Positions 733-60,228 of a DNA stretch of 64,000 nucleotides are shown here, piece by piece. The DNA lies in the NCBI GenBank assembly GCA_951406725.2, contig OX597814.1, forward strand, positions 168,640,001 to 168,704,000, read 5' to 3'. The stretch comes from Octopus vulgaris. Lineage: Eukaryota. Within the stretch, counting starts at the first letter, position 1; each line of letters opens with the position of its first letter. Below the pieces are notes generated by a model. That model searched no databases and was not told the origin of the DNA. It saw only the letters and a list, made by a program, of their open reading frames with translations. Made by a program: the position numbers and the translations under genes.

Positions 733-778
733 TTGTCACTGAGGAGACCAAACCAGGTTGAAACAACCTGTCTGACGA
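733..778 (+). ncRNA. Type I hammerhead ribozyme (minimal, Penelope/retrozyme type)
   Basis: TTGTCA-CTGAGGA-GACC aaacca GGTT-GAAA-CA acc TG-TC-TGACGA. Stem I TTGTCA/TGACGA, intact CUGANGA and GAAA core, stem II GACC/GGTT, short stem III, GUC cleavage triplet (cut after 772). Confidence 0.75.
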
Positions 779-1984
779 TCTCCTGACATTCTGAGCAAAG
801 CTATGTCTTTTCTTTTTATTATACAAGTGTCTTTCAGAAGTTTCTCAAAGACAAAATATAACAGCATTTGGCATTCCATGTTTGTATGTACATTATAAAT
901 ATACATACGTGTGTAAAACATTTTTGAACCCTTCATAAATTAAAATAGCTTCTTAAGTTTGGTGGATCCTTGAAAATAAATTGTACCGCTAATTTTTTTC
1001 TCTATTGTTTCCATCCCTAGAACATGCTTTCTGTTCTTTTGAAATTTCTGTTTCTATAACATTCCCAATGTGGGAATCTAAATGCTAGAAATAACAACGA
1101 AATTCTATCAAATCACACGCTACTACCTTACAAAAGAAAAAAAACCCTACCACTTGAAATAGCGTAGTCTGAGATTTACTATTTTTTTTTAAAGAACAAA
1201 ACTGGGTGGTTTTGGCGGGACCGTCTTTTGATCTTGTCTGTTCGATCAGTGTTGATCAGGGGCCAAAGGACAATAACAACCTCTCCTTTTCTCATTTTAG
1301 TCATGTTTTTGTCTCCCTCTCAGATTCCATCCTAAATACTCTGCCAAATTCTTCACCCCACTTCCAGTGCCACAACTGCATTCGTTTGGTCCGCCTTTCG
1401 TGTTTCTGTATTTCCTTCAACAATTTTAACTCGACTTCAAATGTATTAACTACCCCACTCCCCCATCCGCACTCATTCCACTCCTTTGGCTAAGGGAAAG
1501 GTCTAAAAGGGGAGAACCATTAGTGTGCTGTCTCTCCTCCTTATACTGACGAATCGAAAAACCAGAAACGAAAGCAAACAAACAAATAAATAAATCTATT
1601 TGAATTACAAATCTGTGATTTGGAATAATTTTATCGATTATTTTGTTCTGCAATTTCATCCGATTTATAGAATCAGTATACTTTTTTTTATGTCTTTATA
1701 AAAAAATTACTCTAAAATCTTCAGATCACACAAGGCATGACTGTATTTTCGGCAATTTTGAAAGCACTATTATTATTAGTTTCGCTTATTATGGTTTTGT
1801 TTTAGTCATTTCTACATGCAACGCTGGCCATAACGTAGCCAATGACGTTTATTGAATAAAAAAAAAAGGAAAAGAAAAAAAAAAGAAAAAAGATCATTGC
1901 TTGCTGAAAACAACTGTACTAAATTATGTTTTATGAATGAAAGACAGAATAAAATTTGTAAAAATAAATAAATGATATGGACAC

Positions 1985-2150
1985 AGTCATGGCTATGTGG
2001 TTAAGAAGTTTATTTCGCAATCATATGATTCTGCGTTCGACTTCACTAGAGGGAAGCTTTTGATAAGTATCTTCTACCACTGCACTGGGTCAACCAAAGC
2101 TTTGCAGATGAAATTTGTTAGACGGATTATGTATAGAATCTCGTTGAGTG
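1985..2150 (+). mobile_element. Degraded tRNA-derived SINE head (family A)
   Basis: GGCTATGTGGTTAAGAAG...GCGTTCGACTTCACT...CAACCAAAGCTTTG aligns by eye with the intact family A copies at 29071 and 48917. Confidence 0.55.
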
Positions 2151-2368
2151 TGTATATATATTTTTTCCTTGTAGTTTCATTCAGTCTTTGGACTGCAGGC
2201 GTGCTGCATCACCTCCTTCAACGGTCTTATGTTATTTATATCAACCCCCAGGACTGATTTCAATCTGGTAATTAATTATCGAATGGTTAGGTTATCTTTA
2301 GACGTGAAGGGACGCAATTCGACATACTGTTTTACACTAGTATACACTGACACATAGACCTACACACA

Positions 2369-2406
<38 letters not shown>

Positions 2407-3169
2407 ATGTATGTGTGTCTGTCTGTCTGTATGTATGTATGTACTACGTATGTACGTATATACGTATGTGTGTATGTGCGATTTTATGTATGTGTGTATG
2501 TATGTCACTCAAGTTCGGGAGTTCTGGAGTTGTAGGGAGCGTGGAGTCACTCCTTTATTGCCATTACTCCTAGGTCCCTTCTGATCCGGAATTGTAGTAC
2601 CTGTCAGAATCCCATTTGTGGGTTAAATAGATTTCTCAGAGGTAGAGAAGGCTCCGGTTGATTTTAGCGAAGCCGTGGGGAAGGCAGCTCTTCTAGGAGA
2701 AAAATATTCTCAAAATAGTACCAATCATCTTTCAATGCTTGAGACTGGAACCTTCTATAGCGATCGAGAGAGTGGCAAACGTGTTGCACAAGCTTTTATC
2801 ACTTAAATCCAATGTCTCACTATCATTTCATTTCTTGATCCGTTTTTGTATTTTATATGTCAATAGATGCGTGGCTGAAAAGCCATATCTGCACACATGC
2901 AAAGATGGAAGTGAGACGGCTATCATCTGACAAGACGAGGCAATCATCATGTATGTTTGCTTAATAGTCGTCCTGCAGACGGATAAAATTGTGTGCCGAA
3001 ATCTTTGTTCACGCTTTGATTGAATACGCAATGACTAAAGCTGCATTAACGACCCGGAACATTCTTATATGATAAAAATAACATGCTAAAGCATTTTTAG
3101 TGTGGTCATTATTTGTCTGTGTTATATGAGAAAAAAATAACTACACAAGAAAATTCTATCGCTTTATAC

Positions 3170-3540
3170 AATATTTTAATTTAACGTATGCCTCTAAAGA
3201 ATGTCTGAATACCAAAATATTCCCTGCAAAAGATCGATTTCCATTCTTTTTCGTTGCCATAATGCTAAGTCTACATGAATTTCCTGCTCTGGACATGATT
3301 ATATAAAACTGGCCGTAGGGGAATCATGCGTAGTTCTTTTAGGTAGATATCGACCTTTGAAAGCATTTGGCCTTGAACTTTGAAAATTGGAAGATCCCAA
3401 CAGTAGCTTGATATGAAATATTGCCTTTGCATTTGGAATTGGCAGTGCTTAATCACTCGGTGGCATATGTATTCTTGGAATAAATAAATCTTTCCCTTTA
3501 TAAGCGCCAGAAGCCATAACAGCGTAAATAACTTTGCCGA
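3170..3540 (-). pseudogene. Helitron Rep-Hel (PIF1-like helicase) C-terminal fragment, frameshifted
   Basis: Translations GAYKGKDLFIPRIHMPPSD and KVQGQMLSKVDIYLKE match PIF1 motifs (FIPRI..PSD; KSQGQTL.KVGIYL). Same region as the better copy at 57286-58445. Confidence 0.7.
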
Positions 3541-3552
3541 GCGAGAGCGAGA

Positions 3553-3608
<56 letters not shown>

Positions 3609-4526: not shown

Positions 4527-5043
4527 TAAAAAATAAATAAATGCGCCCTTTTAAAGCCTAGCCAGGCTCATGGGCCCGGTTTCCCGGTTTCTATGGCGTA
4601 TGTGTTCCCCAGCTGGACGGGATGCCAGTCCATCGCAGTGTTACTCATTTTTGCCTGCTGAGTGAACTGGAGCAACGTGAAATGAAGTGTTTTGCTCAAG
4701 AACACAACGCGTCACCCGGTCCAGGAATCGAAACCACAATCTTACGATCATGATGCTGACACCTTAACCACTAAGCCACGCGCCTCTACAAAAAATGTTC
4801 CTTCTCTAGCCATGCCATGCTCATAAGGGACGGTTTCCCGGTTTCAGTGGCGTAGAAATTCCCCACCTGGACGGGATGCCGGTCCGTCGCAGGATTACTC
4901 ATTTTTGCCAGCTGAGTGAACTGGAGCAACGTGAAATGAAGTGTTTTGCTCAAGAACACAACACATCGCCCGGTCCAGGAATCGAAACCACAACCTTACG
5001 ATCATGAGTTCAACACCCTAACCACTAAGCCACGCGCCTCCAC
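4527..5043 (-). mobile_element. Two tandem tRNA-derived SINEs (family D head, CORE-like centre) inside one TSD
   Basis: Two ~255-bp units, each with minus-strand A box GTGGCTTAGTGGTTA and B box GGTTTCGATTCC. TAATGGATCACA occurs at 4515-4526 and 5044-5055. Confidence 0.85.
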
Positions 5044-5139
5044 TAATGGATCACACAGCTGTACATAATGAAGAGTTAAATAAGTTCCCACTACTGATGG
5101 ATCTCATTGCTGTTGCACATTCCAGTATGTCACATAGTT

Positions 5140-5548
5140 GGGATCTTTTCGATTTGACCGGCAGTTTTTAAAAATAATTTCCACGTAACTAAACACTTTT
5201 AAACTTCGTATACTGGTAGAATGTGTTTATAAAACATCTTTTTCTCTTGGCTTTATTGAGAAAATTCCATAGTTTGTAAGATATTTGTTGTCTTTTTCTT
5301 CAGTTTCTGCAATTTCAACCAATCAATGACGTCTATTGAGGTGAAAACATTCTGTGCCGTATGAATGTGTCCCTCGTTTAAGAAACAGATTGGGTTTATT
5401 TACATTTGTGAAGGAAAAAGATACTCTCCCCCCCACCCCTAACCCTAAAACAGATTGAAATGCAATAGATCGATACTAGGGTCATAATTATGGGTGACAA
5501 TTTCATATGACACCGCTAGAAAAAAAGCCGGTCAAACGAAAAGATCCC
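5140..5548. mobile_element. MITE with ~30-bp TIRs and 6-bp TSD
   Basis: GGGATCTTTTCGATTTGACCGGC at the left end and GCCGGTCAAACGAAAAGATCCC at the right. ATAGTT at 5134-5139 and 5549-5554. Confidence 0.85.
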
Positions 5549-9895: not shown

Positions 9896-10422
9896 TATTG
9901 GAAAAAGACATCCGGTATAGAGGAATTTAAATCGTGAATAGCGAACTAGCTGTGAAAAAATGAAAAAGGGGAAGTGAAAAATAATAAAAATAAATAAAAG
10001 AACCGCTTGTACTCGTGAAAGGTCAACCACTGTTTTGTGAGAGTATGCGAGTAATGCGACAATATAACGCTTACAATACAAGTTAGATATACATTGTCAA
10101 ACAGATTTTGTGCCCATACTGGAAAAGACATGTATAGGCAGACATATATATATATATATATATAAGCTTCGAATGTCTCGTCCGTGTTTTTTCTATCGTC
10201 TTCTAAATGTTTTACGTTCTTGTCCCAGTTTGTATTTTTCTACATATAATATATATATAATATAAGGGATATTAGCCAACTGAATATGGCTAGGGACAGG
10301 GCAGGGTGGTGGGGGTGTCACTGTTGCATTTAGCCCCAGGCGAACATCAACGTCACCAGATAGGCCGACGCCATCACGGCGTCCTCTATCTTGCAAAGGG
10401 AGATCATTCACCAAGAAGCGGA

Positions 10423-10476
10423 TACCACACACGGACCTAGGTTTCAAGGTGTATTGCCTATTATCAACGTGTGGTA
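10423..10476 (-). ncRNA. Type I hammerhead ribozyme, U3-A8 core variant (copy 1)
   Basis: Minus strand TACCACACG-TTGATAA-T AGG caataca CCT T-GAAA-CCTAGG-TC-CGTGTGTGGTA. Palindromic stem III, GUC cut between 10434 and 10433. Confidence 0.75.
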
Positions 10477-10777
10477 GGCATCGCTTCTCGATGAACGACC
10501 AACCGTGCAAGATACATATAAATATTTTCAAGTAAATACATTTACTGATTTCGAAAATCTGTTCGACAGCAATAATAATTCTCTAAATGAGATATAGACA
10601 GTGACTGCTCCATAATATAAGGGATATTAGCCAACTGAATATGGCTAGGGACAGGGCAGGGTGGTGGGGGTGTCACTGTTGCATTTAGCCCCAGGCGAAC
10701 ATCAACGTCACCAGATAGGCCGACGCCATCACGGCGTCCTCTATCTTGCAAAGGGAGATCATTCACCAAGAAGCGGA

Positions 10778-10831
10778 TACCACGCACGGACCTAGGTTTC
10801 AAGGTGTATTGCCTATTATCAACGTGTGGTA
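10778..10831 (-). ncRNA. Type I hammerhead ribozyme, U3-A8 core variant (copy 2)
   Basis: Same motif as copy 1, with stem I 3' strand CGTGCGTGGTA. Cut between 10789 and 10788. Confidence 0.75.
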
Positions 10832-10883
10832 GGCATCGCTTCTCGATGAACGACCAACCGTGCAAGATACATATAAAGATTTT

Positions 10884-11546: not shown

Positions 11547-11906
11547 CAACAATAATAATAATTCTTTCAAATTTTGGCACATTTTAAGGGGAAAGGGCAA
11601 AAATAATAATAGCAATTTCTAAAGGAAGAATCAACATAGATAATCTTTATTGATTCTGCTCTTATAATTACTGGTTTTCTTATTATTGAGAATGTGTGTG
11701 TGTGTGTGTGTGTGTGTGATGCCAACTAGTACTCTTAGTCACTTTAGTGAAGTCTATACTTCTGCCTTTCGGTTGTAAATTGCGAATAAGCCACCTTTAT
11801 AATTTATAATTTTCACTTTTACCTTTTAGGAAATCAGCGTACGAGCTCTACGGTAACACATATAACCTGACTAAACGAGCTAGCATAACCCACTAAGCAG
11901 ATGGGT

Positions 11907-13639
11907 GGTTGGATTGTGTAAATTGTTGAATGTCAGTCACTGTTTCGTTTGCACCTGCATAATCCCCGTCTACGGGAGGATTGAAGAAAGGAAGAGAGAT
12001 GGAGAATAGACGAAGTTACGCAGCGGCAACGACACAAGGAATAAATGCCAACGCCCTGGAAGTACAGGAAATAGAAATTGACACAAGAAAGAAGAAGGAA
12101 GGAAGAAAATTTATTAAAAAGAAGTGAGTCAGTCTAAAGCTGACTCCCCCAGAAGAACTGATGAACAGCGTAGCGAAGAGAACGATAGTATACAGAACGT
12201 TGTCTACGTCCTCGAACAAGATAGAGTTAGCAGCAACAGAAGAAATAGAGGAATGTCTCGAAAATGTTAAAAAATTGACCACATTCTATACACGTGGAAA
12301 AAATTATGGCTCACTGGAAGTAAGGTTTGGCAACGAAGGAGATGCCATAAACAACTCCACGGACCAGTTACGGACAACGGAATGGATACTACTTCCGACG
12401 TACTGTGGCAAACGCGTTGCTAGAGTGAGAGTTGGAAGAGTGCCCCCCGAAATCGAGGAAGAATGGCTGGTAGCAACCATAATGCACGATATGAAGGATG
12501 GGGTAGAGATCCTCAAGATAACGAGGATCTAATGGGTCAATTAGTGGAGATATGGCCTCGAAGTGACCATGCAAGTATGGTCTTTGGAAGACTTGCATAG
12601 TATAACGGAGGAAATAATACTCCCGGAAGACACCAGACTTCGAATAACAGTAGAAGGAAAATCACCAACATGCTTCCAATGCGGCAAAAAAAGGGCACAT
12701 GAAAGCAAAATGTCCCGAGAAGGAAAACGAAGAGGAGAAGAAAAGTGAAGAAAACAATACCGAAGAAGTAGTACCAATAAAAGTAGGAACCCTTCACAGT
12801 AGTAAACACGAGGAAGAGAAAGGAACAGGTGAATTCTCCCCCAGACAGTCAAAAAAGGTTAAAAGAGATTGTGACGGAAGAAAAGAGAAATAGGTGTGAA
12901 GCACCAACAGAAGCAATGGTGAAAGAAGGCACACAGAAAAAAACAGCATTACAACAGGGTGAAAGACGAAGCGTTTATAAAATCTGTTATGATGTTTCTG
13001 CACGCCCGAACAGATCAGGACGAGAGCCGAAGCAAGCAGAAGTGAAAAGGAAGAGATGTAAGTGAAAAGGAAGAGATCACGTATTCCGAAAGCAAAGAAA
13101 TACAGAAAACGATTGTTAAATATATATCGGTAATAAGAGTAAGGCTGTCGCCAAGAAAATACCCGGAATACACTAAAGGAATAGTCACAGACAAAGAGAC
13201 ATTTTTGAAATTGAGAGAGATGTATGAACTTTTCATAGACCCACTGGGGTTGAAGTCGAGTTTGACGAACTCTCACTGGTCGTGGAATTAGAAGATTTGA
13301 AACCCTTTATGAACATTTAAAAACAAGTAAAATTTGTACTTCATATTAGAAAACGAGGAAAATAGACTTAAAAAGTTTAAAGAAAACAGAGAAAAAAAAA
13401 ACGATCCAAAAAAAAGAGACTAAGAAAAAGAACGAGCTAAAAAAAGGAAAAAAAAAGAAGACTGTAAGAACGTTTAATTGTAAAAAATGAAATCACGGTT
13501 TCGTCTCGGAGCGGGGCCGAAAAAACCGTCTCATATTCATTGTAATTCATTGTAATTCATTCTTTCATATGTTTTTCTGTTCCTGCATGTTTGTGCATGT
13601 CTCCTCTGTATTCAGGTCTTGTGCCTATAATAAAGGGAA
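11907..13639 (+). mobile_element. ORF1-only non-autonomous non-LTR retroelement (HAL1-like)
   Basis: Perfect 15-bp TSD ACTAAGCAGATGGGT (11892-11906 and 13640-13654). AATAAA at 13629. Only a gag/ORF1-like frame inside, no endonuclease or RT. Confidence 0.8.
11999..13325 (+). pseudogene. L1/Tx1-type ORF1p (RRM-like region plus CCHC zinc knuckle), disrupted
   Basis: MENRRSYAAATT N-terminus; ARVRVGRVPPEIEEEWL; ITVEGKSPTCFQCGKK-GHMKAKC (CX2CX4HX4C, split by a frameshift in the A-run near 12690). Several stops. The 3' limit is approximate. Confidence 0.75.
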
Positions 13640-13650
13640 ACTAAGCAGAT

Positions 13651-13711
13651 GGGTAAGAACCACTGACGAGCATTAATGAAATGCGAAATCACTGGTGATC
13701 TGGCTATGCCC
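13651..13711 (+). ncRNA. Type I hammerhead ribozyme with extended stem I
   Basis: GGGTA agaa CCA-CTGACGA-GCAT taatgaa ATGC-GAAA-TCAC tg GTGA-TC-TGG cta TGCCC. Intact core, AUC triplet, cut after 13700. Confidence 0.8.
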
Positions 13712-13831
13712 CGGATGCTGTAGGGAGCCAGCCTCCCTTGTCAGTGCTTTCTCGTGGGTAAGAGTTCTTTTGATTCTTATTTCTAGCAATGCTGGCGCTA
13801 ACTAGTACCCTTAATTACTTTAGTTTTTAGT

Positions 13832-13908
<77 letters not shown>

Positions 13909-14025: not shown

Positions 14026-14742
14026 TAAATCTTTAAAAATGTTTTAGCCCGAAGGCCGCGGCCATGCTGGGGCACCACCGCTGAATGAGCTACACTAGTT
14101 TGTGAATCCACCTCTGATACGTGGCACTTGATCAACAAGGGAGTTCGATGCTGCTGCCCGCATCCGTGTCTCCTGTCGTGAGGTAGGTTCATCTGGGACT
14201 CCCAACAAGAAGAGATCCAGTTTAGTTTTAAAGAAACCCACATCCACACCATGTAAGTCTCTCAGGCATTTAGGGAGGATGTTAAAGAGCTGTGGTCCTC
14301 TGAAACCCAAGCTGTTGCAGTATCTGGACCTGTATTTTGATGGTGATGTTGGAATCCTTGGCACCACGCAGCGGCGCCCCGTTCTGCGGTTGGAGTAACT
14401 TTGAATGTCAAAGTTTGGGACAAGACCCTCCAGGATTTTCCAGATGTATATCACTGCATATCTCTCCCGCCTCCGCTCCAGGGAGAAGAGGTTTAATACC
14501 TTCAGTCTTTCCCAGTAGCTGACATTTTGCATTGAGACGATTTTCTTTGTGTAGCTTCTCTGAGTTGCTTCGAGTTCTGCTGTTTGTTTTATATTGTGTG
14601 GTGACCAAAGTTGGGAGCAGTAGTCCAAGCGGCTGAGGACGAATGTTTTCCATAGGACCATCAGTGTCTCCTTCTCTCTTGTTCTGAAAGTTCGGAGAAT
14701 CCATCCAGCTAGCCGTCTGCATTTTATCACCAGATTAGCAAT
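14026..14742 (-). mobile_element. 5'-truncated CR1-clade LINE (ORF2 C-terminus plus 3' tail)
   Basis: Open frame GWILRTF...SRLDYCSQLWSP...LEATQRSYTK...YWERLKVLNLFSLERRRER...FFKTKLDLFL, stop at 14095. Tail GGTGCCCCAGCATGGCCGC. Confidence 0.9.
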
Positions 14743-15013
14743 ATATATATATATATAAACATATATACAAGATAAGAAAATGGAGAAATACATCTAAATC
14801 AAATATCAATTACCAGATAATACTCAATCACATACTTTATTAAACCACCACATAAGAGACTGCAGGGTTAAATATAAAAAGCAGAACAAATCAGTGTACA
14901 TAAACGGAATGTACATAAAAAAGTGTACATAAAAGAGTAATGTTGTATAATAATTAGAGTATATATAAAAAATAATATAAATACAAGTAAATATAAATAT
15001 AAGTATAAATTAG

Positions 15014-31973: not shown

Positions 31974-33318
31974 ATGTGTGTGTCGTGAGTTTGTGTAGTC
32001 AAATCGTAGGAGAATTGTTTGAGCCGTAAAAAGGGTGAGATGTGTGTGGTATGCTTGGGTATCGAAAAAAAAATATATATGTAACAAGTTTATTAATATC
32101 GTAACGTAGTAAGTTACATAGTTCGTCCCATATTGAAATCGAAAGGAATTTCGATAAACAGACGGTCACCATTGAAACAGACGTCAGCTCATCGAAATTT
32201 CTTTTGGTTTACAATATGGGACGAACTATGTAAACGATGTTAATAAACTCGTCTTATCGTATATTGTCTAACCCTTGTCATCTCTACTAGGCTGAATATA
32301 TAAATGCATACATGTGTGTGTCGTGAGTTTGTGTAGTGAAATCGTAGGAGAATTGTTTGAGCCGAAAAGGGTGAGATGTGTGTGTGGTATGCTTGGGTAT
32401 CGAAAACAATATATATATATGTAACAAGTTTATTAATATCGTAACGTAGTAAGTTACATAGTTCGTCCCATATTGAAATCGAAAAGAATTTCGATAAACA
32501 AACGGTCACCATTGAAACAGACGTCAGCTCATCGAAATTTCTTTTGATTTTCAATATGGGACGAACTATGTAAACGATGTTAATAAACTCGTCTTATCGA
32601 ATATTGTCTAACCTTTGTCATCTCTACTAGGCTGAATATATAAATGCATACATGTGTGTGTCGTGAGTTTGTGTAGTGAAATCGTAGGAGAATTGTTTGA
32701 GCCGAAAAGGGAGAGATGTGTGTGGGTATGCTTGGGTATCGAAGAAAATATATATGTAACAAGTTTACTAATATCGTAACGTAGTAAGTTGCATAGTTCG
32801 TCCCATATTGAAATCAGAAGGAATTTCGATAAACAGTCGGTCACCATACAACCGTCAGCTCATCGAAATTTCTTTTGATTTTCAATATGGAACGAACTAT
32901 GTAAACGATGTTAATAAACTCGTCTTATCGTATATTGTCTAACCCTTGTCATCTCTACTAGGCTGAATATATAAATGCATACATGTGTGTGTCGTGAGTT
33001 TGTGTAGTGAAATCGTAGGAGAATTGTTTGAGCCGTAAAAAGGGTGAGATGTGTGTGGTATGCTTGGGTATCGAAAAAAAAATATATATGTAACAAGTTT
33101 ATTAATATCGTAACATAGTAAGTTACACAGTTCGTCCCATATTAAAATCAGAAAGAATTTCGATAAACAGACGGTCACCATACAACCGTCAGCTCATCGA
33201 AATTTCTTTTGATTTTCAATATGGAACGAACTATGTAAACGATGTTAATAAACTCGTCTTATCGAATATCGTCTAACCTTTGTCATCTCTACTAGGCTGA
33301 ATATATAAATGCATACAT
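31974..33318. repeat. Tandem array of four 331-340-bp units, each with a long internal inverted repeat
   Basis: TCGTGAGTTTGTGTAG recurs at 31983, 32321, 32661 and 32992. Fold-back at 32087-32249 in unit 1. Confidence 0.95.
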
Positions 33319-36740: not shown

Positions 36741-37299
36741 TTGAGACTCAGACTGTCACCCAACACTCTGAAATATTCGTATTGGCGCTTCCGGTGCAAA
36801 TGCCAAGCAGTACAGCACATCATTTCCAAAACTCTCAAATGGTTATTTGGTGCTGCTACGACTATCAGATTACATGATTTCAGTCTGATTTGACCTTATC
36901 AATGATAGACTTCAAACAGCTGAAAATAGCAGCAACTGCCGTGCTAGCAATACACATAGAAATACAGAGCCAAAAGAGGCGTTAACTGGTAATTATGTGA
37001 GTCTGTTTACCAAAGGGAAACAATTGACCAGAAAGAGCGGGAAATTATCAAAGAGAAAATAAGACAGCAGAGAGAGACATTCTTATGAGATTAGCAGATA
37101 TTATCGAATTTCTGGTAAAATAAATTTGGGTTTTAAGAGACATCATGAAGTATTGGAGAACAAAACTGAAACTGGACGTAATGATTTCAAAATTAGAAGG
37201 AATTTATTGGTGGCAGTGGAATTCCGTTCAAAATATGATCGCTCTCTTGAAAGATCAACTCCTTTGAACTAAGATGAGTGACACAAGAATGTCCTGCTT

Positions 37300-59080: not shown

Positions 59081-60228
59081 CAGAGCTGGGTGTAAGTCCA
59101 TTAATCCGTTAATCGTTAATTAACGAAGTTAACATTTTCGTTAACAATTTGACTTTCAAGTTAACTTTGAAAATCATTATCGGACTAATTAACTTCCATT
59201 ACATTTAGCTTCCGTTAACTAAAGCCCGTTAATCCCAAAATTTCATAAAAACCGGTAAACATTTAAAAGGCCAAAAAAGCTGATTTTATGGTTTTGGCGC
59301 TTTTTAACACTTCAGTGTTTAAACCGGCCAAAATCCGTTCGTATCTAATTCCTCTACGAAATCTTTTAAAAGATAAACAAATCACGTTAGTGAATTCCCG
59401 TAGCTTTGAGATAATGTCAGGGTTTTTCTTCCACAAAGCACAGAACTGGGGAAAAAAGCAAAAGTAACTGACGTGGATGTCAACAGAGAAAATATTGACT
59501 TTCATCAAGTGGAAAAATAAATGGCAGGAAAAAAGTTGGTAAGTATTTTCGGTATGAACGCAAATAGCCGTTACGTGTGGTAGCAGGACATGCTAGAAAT
59601 AACAATCAAATCTTTCCTTTTCTTGAAAAAGAAGCCGTTTATGCGTGATTTCGATGTCACATTCGTTGAAAGCATACAAAATAACCTAGTAAAAACGCCG
59701 CGGAAAAAAACTTCGAGGTCCCCATCACCTTTTCTACCTTTCTTTTCCGGAAAAAAAGTGGCTTGCGACGAGTTTGGAGGTCAGATACATTGAATGCACC
59801 CGAAAAAAAAAAAAAACTGTGGAAAATATTATTCCACACCGAGGTACGAAATATTTAGCGAAAGAATAAAACCATGTACCGATTATATATGTATTTTAAT
59901 TAATTCAAATTAATGTAGCTCATCTTGAAAAGTGGCAAAATTTTTGTCGGTTGCCATCTGGGATAATTTTAGTAACAAATCAAACAGGTAAGATGCATTA
60001 ATAATTTCAAATTTAGTGTTCACCCATACATGCAATTTATAGGATATAAGCGATTATTTGGTGAAAATTTCGTTAAAAAGTATCCATTTTTCTGGAATTA
60101 TGAAGCAACAAAGTCGGTGGGTTATTAAACTGTAGTTACGCTTTTTTCAATAAAAGTTCACGTCAACGGATAAATAAATGATTAACAAAGTTAACTTTTT
60201 GATTATAACGAAGTTAAATTTTCGATTA
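59081..60228. mobile_element. Possible non-autonomous hAT-like element
   Basis: Starts CAGAGCTGGG with clustered GTTAAC/CGTTAA subterminal motifs at both ends. The right TIR is not found. Confidence 0.4.

Follow-up and report, generated by a model that had tools for sequence, protein, structure and literature searches.

A decayed, ORF1-only retroelement beside a hammerhead motif in a likely Penelope-derived repeat of Octopus vulgaris

The window, i.e. the whole 64-kb stretch of Octopus vulgaris DNA that was analysed, carries on its + strand a 1733-bp ORF1-only non-LTR retroelement (11907..13639) with a 5' UTR of 92 nt and a 3' UTR of 319 nt. It is bordered by an exact 15-bp target-site duplication (TSD), ACTAAGCAGATGGGT, at 11892-11906 (left copy, +) and 13640-13654 (right copy, +). 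The right copy doubles as the distal 5' strand of stem I of a hammerhead motif. An element of this length with a perfect 15-bp TSD had been proposed in the initial annotation, and the boundaries found here agree with it. Besides the TSD, the two 161-nt end regions share no match of at least 8 nt, and the chance expectation of the 15-bp match is 6e-5. An AATAAA polyadenylation signal (13629..13634, +) is followed by the last 5 nt of the element, the final two of which are A; a poly(A) tract is absent in the window copy. Within the 64-kb window, neither a second copy of the element nor one of the repeat that it entered was found. Chance probably accounts for a 20-nt match found at 59591-59610. 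A reading of the element as LTR/Gag was ruled out by the absence of LTRs, the 15-bp TSD and the RRM fold described below. The element is decayed and codes only for a predicted RNA-binding protein.

ORF1 is broken and extends from an ATG at 11999 to a stop codon at 13318-13320 (11999..13320, +). Three in-frame stops (12125, 12530 and 12542) all lie in its first half, i.e. the first 232 codons. The tblastn frames change near 12690, 12785, 13040-13077 and 13250, and the first of these changes splits the CCHC knuckle. At 13040-13077, the window copy alone contains a perfect 20-bp tandem duplication; contigs of other copies differ there. With the stops read as X, the N-terminal 231 residues match an Octopus bimaculoides protein at 57% identity. 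They also match an O. sinensis protein that spans the C-terminal half too, contains a Pfam zf-CCHC domain and ends in the same C-terminal residue as ORF1 of the window. In an exhaustive search, 398 relatives were obtained at E up to 0.001. A structure model built from 111 of 151 stored relatives (pLDDT 91) displays two RRM-type domains, which are predicted at about 12143-12664 (+). The best Foldseek matches of this model are tandem RRMs (IMP3 RRM12, E 9e-6), and a VIA comparison yielded Z up to 8.3 with an rmsd of 4.4 over 83 residues. The RRMs are followed by the CCHC knuckle (12671-12713, +), a charged linker and a predicted ferredoxin-like C-terminal domain (about 13062-13317, +). zf-CCHC is matched in 20 of the 111 aligned relatives, and it is through the knuckle alone that Pfam recognizes the ORF1 family. 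The C-terminal domain of ~80 residues is conserved after the charged linker in four other stored proteins (E under 1e-7). Its low-confidence model gives generic ferredoxin-like matches only (best Z 6.9), from which no family can be named. Based on the structure model, ORF1 is predicted to be of type I (RRM-RRM-CCHC).

Pfam searches gave no match on the window's ORF pieces, no Transposase_22 match for ORF1 and no endonuclease or RT domain in the 25 longer ORF1 matches that were scanned, four of which are fusions with other gene models. A search for longer, fused relatives of the ORF1 protein returned none, which is weak evidence. DNA of ORF1 relatives was absent from metagenome, viral and prokaryote collections, as expected for an animal element. 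In the Atlas, ORF1 points to ZCCHC3 RBD and DUF4283 clusters with scores under the Atlas bar. Pieces of the ORF1 family are also fused to WD40, LDL-receptor, astacin/ShK and fibronectin III gene models (P0007, P0094, P0108 and P0140). These fusions are probably annotation chimeras that arose from intronic copies.

The type I hammerhead motif (13645..13718, +) was located by a descriptor search and a constrained fold. It comprises the core (13663-13669), a 5-bp stem II (13670-13684), GAAA (13685-13688) and a self-complementary 4-bp stem III (13688-13699), all on the + strand. All core nucleotides (CUGANGA, GAAA, NUH) and three helices are present, and the motif is open at helix I. Stem I is two-part: in the constrained fold, 13645-13655 pairs with 13707-13718, which bears out the earlier observation that the TSD overlaps the distal 5' strand of stem I. 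The predicted cleavage site directly follows C13700 (+) and lies 61 nt downstream of the element's end. The descriptor search returned 0.01-0.06 hits per shuffled window. Rfam scored no hammerhead family here at the gathering threshold, and none when E values of up to 5 were admitted. The active monomer fold is 6.2 kcal/mol less stable than the predicted minimum, whether or not the end of the element is included, and has a pair probability of 0.002 or less, while a stem III duplex with a second hammerhead copy reaches -14.4 kcal/mol; these predictions leave out tertiary contacts and Mg. According to the folding models, the lone hammerhead would need a dimer partner, and its cleavage would be weak, as no second hammerhead lies nearby. 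Metazoan type I hammerheads are described as working as dimers (PMC4209133). The initial annotation had referred to an intact hammerhead on the same strand as the element. The full core and the cut 61 nt downstream support this, but at the level of sequence only, as Rfam is silent and the monomer fold disfavoured.

Two further hammerheads were found in the window. At 733-778 (+), there is a second type I hammerhead with its core at 739, a stem II of 4 bp, a stem I of 6 bp and a cut after about 772; its sequence is unrelated to the target repeat. The third one (36902), at about 36862-36908 on the - strand, has a stem I of 6 bp and a U3-A8 core variant known from Penelope minimal hammerheads. 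Neither of the two is related to the target, and both were missed by Rfam. On the strand of the third hammerhead and 3' of it, a transposase-like reading frame fragment was observed that has no Pfam match. This means that octopus DNA is dense in hammerhead motifs: the 64 kb hold three, none of them scored by Rfam, and the two beyond that of the target compare with 0.06 expected from shuffling.

When the element and one TSD are removed, a 328-nt unit with a 28-bp terminal repeat and a GC content of 42% is obtained. Its upstream half lies at 11721..11891 (+) and its downstream half at 13719..13824 (+). The tail-like terminal direct repeat at 11721..11748 (copy 1, +) recurs at 13797..13824 (copy 2, +), 97-124 nt past the cut; blastn within the window aligns 24 of 28 nt (86%, E 8e-4). 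A polypyrimidine tract with AG, ending at 11829 (+), is a putative 3' splice site, and a GT at 13758 (+) is a putative 5' splice site. The 148-nt intron that can be inferred from them (13758 to 11829) would span the head-to-tail unit junction. The unit is flanked by a (TG)n microsatellite on its left (11693..11718, unstranded) and a (TCTA)n array on its right (13832-13908). Four forward frames of the repeat gave no Pfam match.

Contigs from four public runs, three of them DNA-like (X1, X2 and X3) and one presumed to be RNA (X19, not taken as evidence of expression), were aligned at 80% likeness. Among the best 15 of 147 joints, five go back from the downstream to the upstream half of the target unit (13794-13813 to 11734-11763), and loose ends behind 13824 read on like 11749 onward. 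Therefore, the unit is arranged head-to-tail elsewhere. A joint from 11837 to 13660 with 35 letters between, present in all three DNA runs, was judged by eye to be a repeat copy that crosses the site without the insert. The summed depth of the target amounts to 13,600-45,400 vs about 40-70 for single contigs, and the conserved part of the unit reaches 525-893x the single-contig depth. The repeat is common and likely represents a Penelope-derived retrozyme/pLTR unit, with which it agrees in its size, its low GC content, its type I hammerhead, a tail-like end repeat, a putative 5' intron and the bias towards microsatellites. The target had previously been called a hammerhead repeat, which is correct, but its Penelope-type unit with the terminal repeat had been missed.

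Non-LTR retrozymes and pLTRs are described as units of 150-450 bp with a GC content under 50% and a tail of 30-40 bp (PMC7229834, PMC4209133, PMC8557442, PMC11167929), and Penelope pLTR/retrozyme traits are also treated in bioRxiv 10.64898/2026.07.22.740005. The target resembles them in its type I hammerhead, whose helix III is palindromic, its 328 nt, its GC content of 42%, its head-to-tail copies, its tail-like terminal repeat, the putative intron across the unit junction and its microsatellite neighbours. Unlike them, the unit in the window is solitary and split by an insertion, its tail-like repeat of 28 bp falls slightly short of 30-40 bp, and neither an attached Penelope ORF nor an autonomous Penelope partner was observed. 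For the element itself, the closest known systems are the ORF1-only derivatives HAL1 (half-L1), HeT-A (Jockey) and Ag-Sponge (CR1) (PMC5786205, PMC3627910, PMC5753468). It shares with these a single ORF1 protein, UTRs, a long TSD, multiple copies and a non-autonomous state, and differs from them by a type I ORF1 with two RRMs, one CCHC and a ferredoxin-like C-terminal domain. It also has no Pfam Transposase_22 match and, in the window copy, no poly(A) tract, and its host is an octopus. Database searches found no autonomous L1-clade parent of the element; the likeness to HAL1 is one of layout. The combination of RRM and CCHC defines a type I ORF1, which occurs in L1/Tx1 and other clades (PMC5203782). 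Tx1L, Keno, Kibi/Koshi, Tx1-Mar and other L1/Tx1-clade elements share with the octopus element such an ORF1 as well as an insertion inside another repeat; unlike them, it contains no APE-RT by which it could be placed. In short, the element works like HAL1 inside a solitary Penelope-type unit, and the locus is a nesting of two known kinds.

The locus is probably best explained by an ORF1-only non-LTR element that was mobilised in trans and landed by chance in a Penelope-derived repeat. The element RNA would end at its own polyadenylation signal and be packaged by ORF1p. The endonuclease of an autonomous L1/Tx1-type partner would nick the DNA 5 nt upstream of the outermost helix of the ribozyme, the position at which the nick site is located in the window. 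In the usual step order of target-primed reverse transcription, a duplication of 15 bp would follow and restore the sequence downstream of the first nick, so that the ribozyme survives without selection. The insertion would split a solitary retrozyme/pLTR unit, and the ORF would decay afterwards. No selection is needed to account for a whole ribozyme, since all sequence 3' of the nick is copied when the target site is duplicated. For O. vulgaris, 13 L1-Tx1 families with recent activity have been reported (PMC13282606). Since type I ORF1 proteins are found in several clades, the L1/Tx1 affiliation of the mobilising enzyme is putative.

The initial annotation had left two options, chance or a family that targets the hammerhead repeat, and had suggested that such a family may gain ribozyme-made 3' ends. 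It is rather unlikely that the family is moved by a target-specific Tx1-type endonuclease which cuts the hammerhead repeat, with read-through transcripts being trimmed by the ribozyme 61 nt beyond the end of the element. In detail, a target-homologous 3' tail would pair with the nicked DNA and stand in for poly(A). Hammerhead cleavage generates a cyclic phosphate end and no poly(A). The same orientation, the whole ribozyme and the missing poly(A) tract fit such a mechanism. Tx1 families are known to target other repeats, so the prior for targeting is real: PMC4494074 describes Tx1L in Tx1D, Tx1-Mar and SINEU-3 in Mariner-N4, and insertions into microsatellites, and it states that specific integration can be reinforced when target sequence is transcribed along with the element. 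Furthermore, an alike hammerhead sub-type has a summed depth of 1800-3600 at 13715-13720, of the same order as that at the element's 3' end. The estimates of chance weigh on both sides. When two hammerheads per 64 kb are scaled to the 2.8-Gb genome (O. vulgaris paper), an insertion has a probability of ~1e-3 (range 1e-4 to 3e-3) of ending up no more than 60 nt upstream of a hammerhead in the same orientation. About 9 in 10,000 insertions, irrespective of the element, would thus show this arrangement, which counts against targeting. A single family with 30-100 copies, however, would produce it with a probability of only 0.03-0.09 (range 0.003-0.34), and this low value per family counts in favour of targeting.

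Against targeting stands the depth at the 5' junction. In a family with one target, >20% of the copies would be flanked by it, the criterion given for target-specific Tx1 families in PMC4494074. In the junction bin 11862-11932, depths of 826/560/495 were found in the three DNA runs. The values predicted under the assumption of flat depth over 50 nt are 842/515/451 for copies that end at 11907 and 1328/812/711 for copies with a common TSD; copy number cannot be read from summed contig depth. Going upstream from 11958 to 11858, the depth decreases to 4-18%. This drop just upstream of the 5' junction agrees with flanks that are unrelated and not with a TSD in common, and it does so in 3/3 DNA runs. 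Similarly, 12-15 contigs per run that carry the common variant at 11958 begin at 11908 in 3/3 DNA runs, a start which a variant at 11938 could also cause. No contig with the common 11958 variant enters the TSD among the best 32 of 5364 pieces. The 3' junction depth is uninformative (5821 to 2567, 4782 to 5147 and 2062 to 1755). In X2, 18 contigs that carry this hammerhead have a median of 96 loose letters upstream of it, which match nothing in the element, and no loose ends occur at 13700 among the best 24 of 1199. The element's own AATAAA, the predicted disfavour of the monomer fold and the density of hammerheads in the window also speak against targeting. As the window contains two more hammerheads that are unrelated, chance adjacency is cheap. 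Unlike in the target-specific Tx1 families, target specificity is unsupported by junction depth. The choice between the two options leans to chance by junction depth, the extra hammerheads, the element's own AATAAA and the predicted need for a dimer. The suggested ribozyme-made 3' ends are so far unsupported. It is quite unlikely that an octopus Tx1-type system targets Penelope hammerhead repeats and that an ORF1-only passenger borrows the target's ribozyme for its 3' end, with the resulting target-homologous tail priming the next insertion. If targeting were true, Tx1-type elements would have a new class of targets, and a ribozyme would serve to form the 3' end of a retroelement to which it does not belong. 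Among the titles and abstracts listed by the literature searches, none dealt with a retroelement targeting hammerhead repeats or with cephalopod ORF1-only elements; Repbase or the Zenodo library of PMC13282606 may hold the family.

Alternatively, the window copy might be an internally deleted copy, or belong to a small sub-lineage, of a two-ORF L1/Tx1 family, with the hammerhead neighbourhood again due to chance. This is unlikely. The window copy agrees with the previous claim that an ORF1/gag-like zinc-knuckle protein is the sole product: it contains one broken ORF with a CCHC knuckle and no ORF2. From the ORF1 stop to the element end, the longest stop-free frame comprises 49 codons, and these 319 nt contain no ORF2 remnant. 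In each of the three DNA runs, 30/30 bins of the compared region are covered. The median depth over the element is 25-42x the single-contig depth, a rough value that is not a copy number, and ~82% of the aligned element contigs are under 95% alike. The contigs suggest a family of, roughly, tens of old copies. Diverged contigs tile the ORF stop and the 3' UTR (X1 record 8, 13081-13382; X3 record 30, 13248-13479), and further ones lie where ORF2 would sit (13388-13487 and 13448-13558; X19 records 15 and 16 reach 13558). They are collinear from ORF1 via its stop into the same 3' UTR up to 13558-13581, and an X1 variant at 13521 has 61 letters of flank on each side. In addition, the DNA runs display no internal pile of loose ends among the best 24 of 1199. 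On the other side, the last 58 nt (13582-13639), where the depth is among the element's highest, are unbridged among the best 32 of 5364 pieces. The depth of the 3' UTR is 2.3-3.0x that of the ORF, which could mean that it is shared with an autonomous partner, but 5' truncation would equally give a higher 3' depth. One contig of ~1.1 kb per DNA run (X1 record 6, X2 record 23 and X3 record 29) diverges near 13052-13064 and continues 3' with ~700 unexplained letters that could stem from a longer relative. Because the diverged copies keep the layout of ORF1 stop and 3' UTR and the O. sinensis protein terminates at the same residue, ORF1-only status would very probably be a trait of the whole family. 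Hence, the earlier description as an ORF1-only, HAL1-like element can probably be extended from the copy to the family, with the ~700 unexplained letters in one contig per DNA run counting against it.

It is very improbable that the whole 2.1-kb block (repeat half, element, hammerhead and tail) is one Penelope-mobilised composite. In its favour, the block as a whole is bordered by the 28-bp terminal repeat, and the mobilisation of other sequences in trans is known from Penelope-like elements (PMC8557442). A composite, however, would be expected to have equal depth on both sides of the 5' junction, whereas the depth at 11858 is only about one to five times that of single contigs, and only one hammerhead is present.

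In its most likely reading, the locus adds a mollusc example to the ORF1-only retroelements, for which the cited sources name mammals (HAL1), flies (HeT-A) and mosquitoes (Ag-Sponge). The nesting of element and hammerhead is useful for annotation and unsurprising. Additional repeats were observed elsewhere in the window. At 14095-14793 (-), there is a 232-codon stop-free frame without Pfam match that we take to resemble the C-terminal end of a LINE ORF2. It was rejected as the missing ORF2 of the element, since it lies on the opposite strand, beyond the microsatellites, and is a separate insertion. A direct repeat of a LINE-like fragment with 355-bp spacing is located at 10261-10877. A 254-bp unit, presumably SINE-like, is present in 1.8 tandem copies at 4577-5040, and at 31974-33318, a 340-bp unit in which no hammerhead core was found forms four tandem copies with 94% matches.
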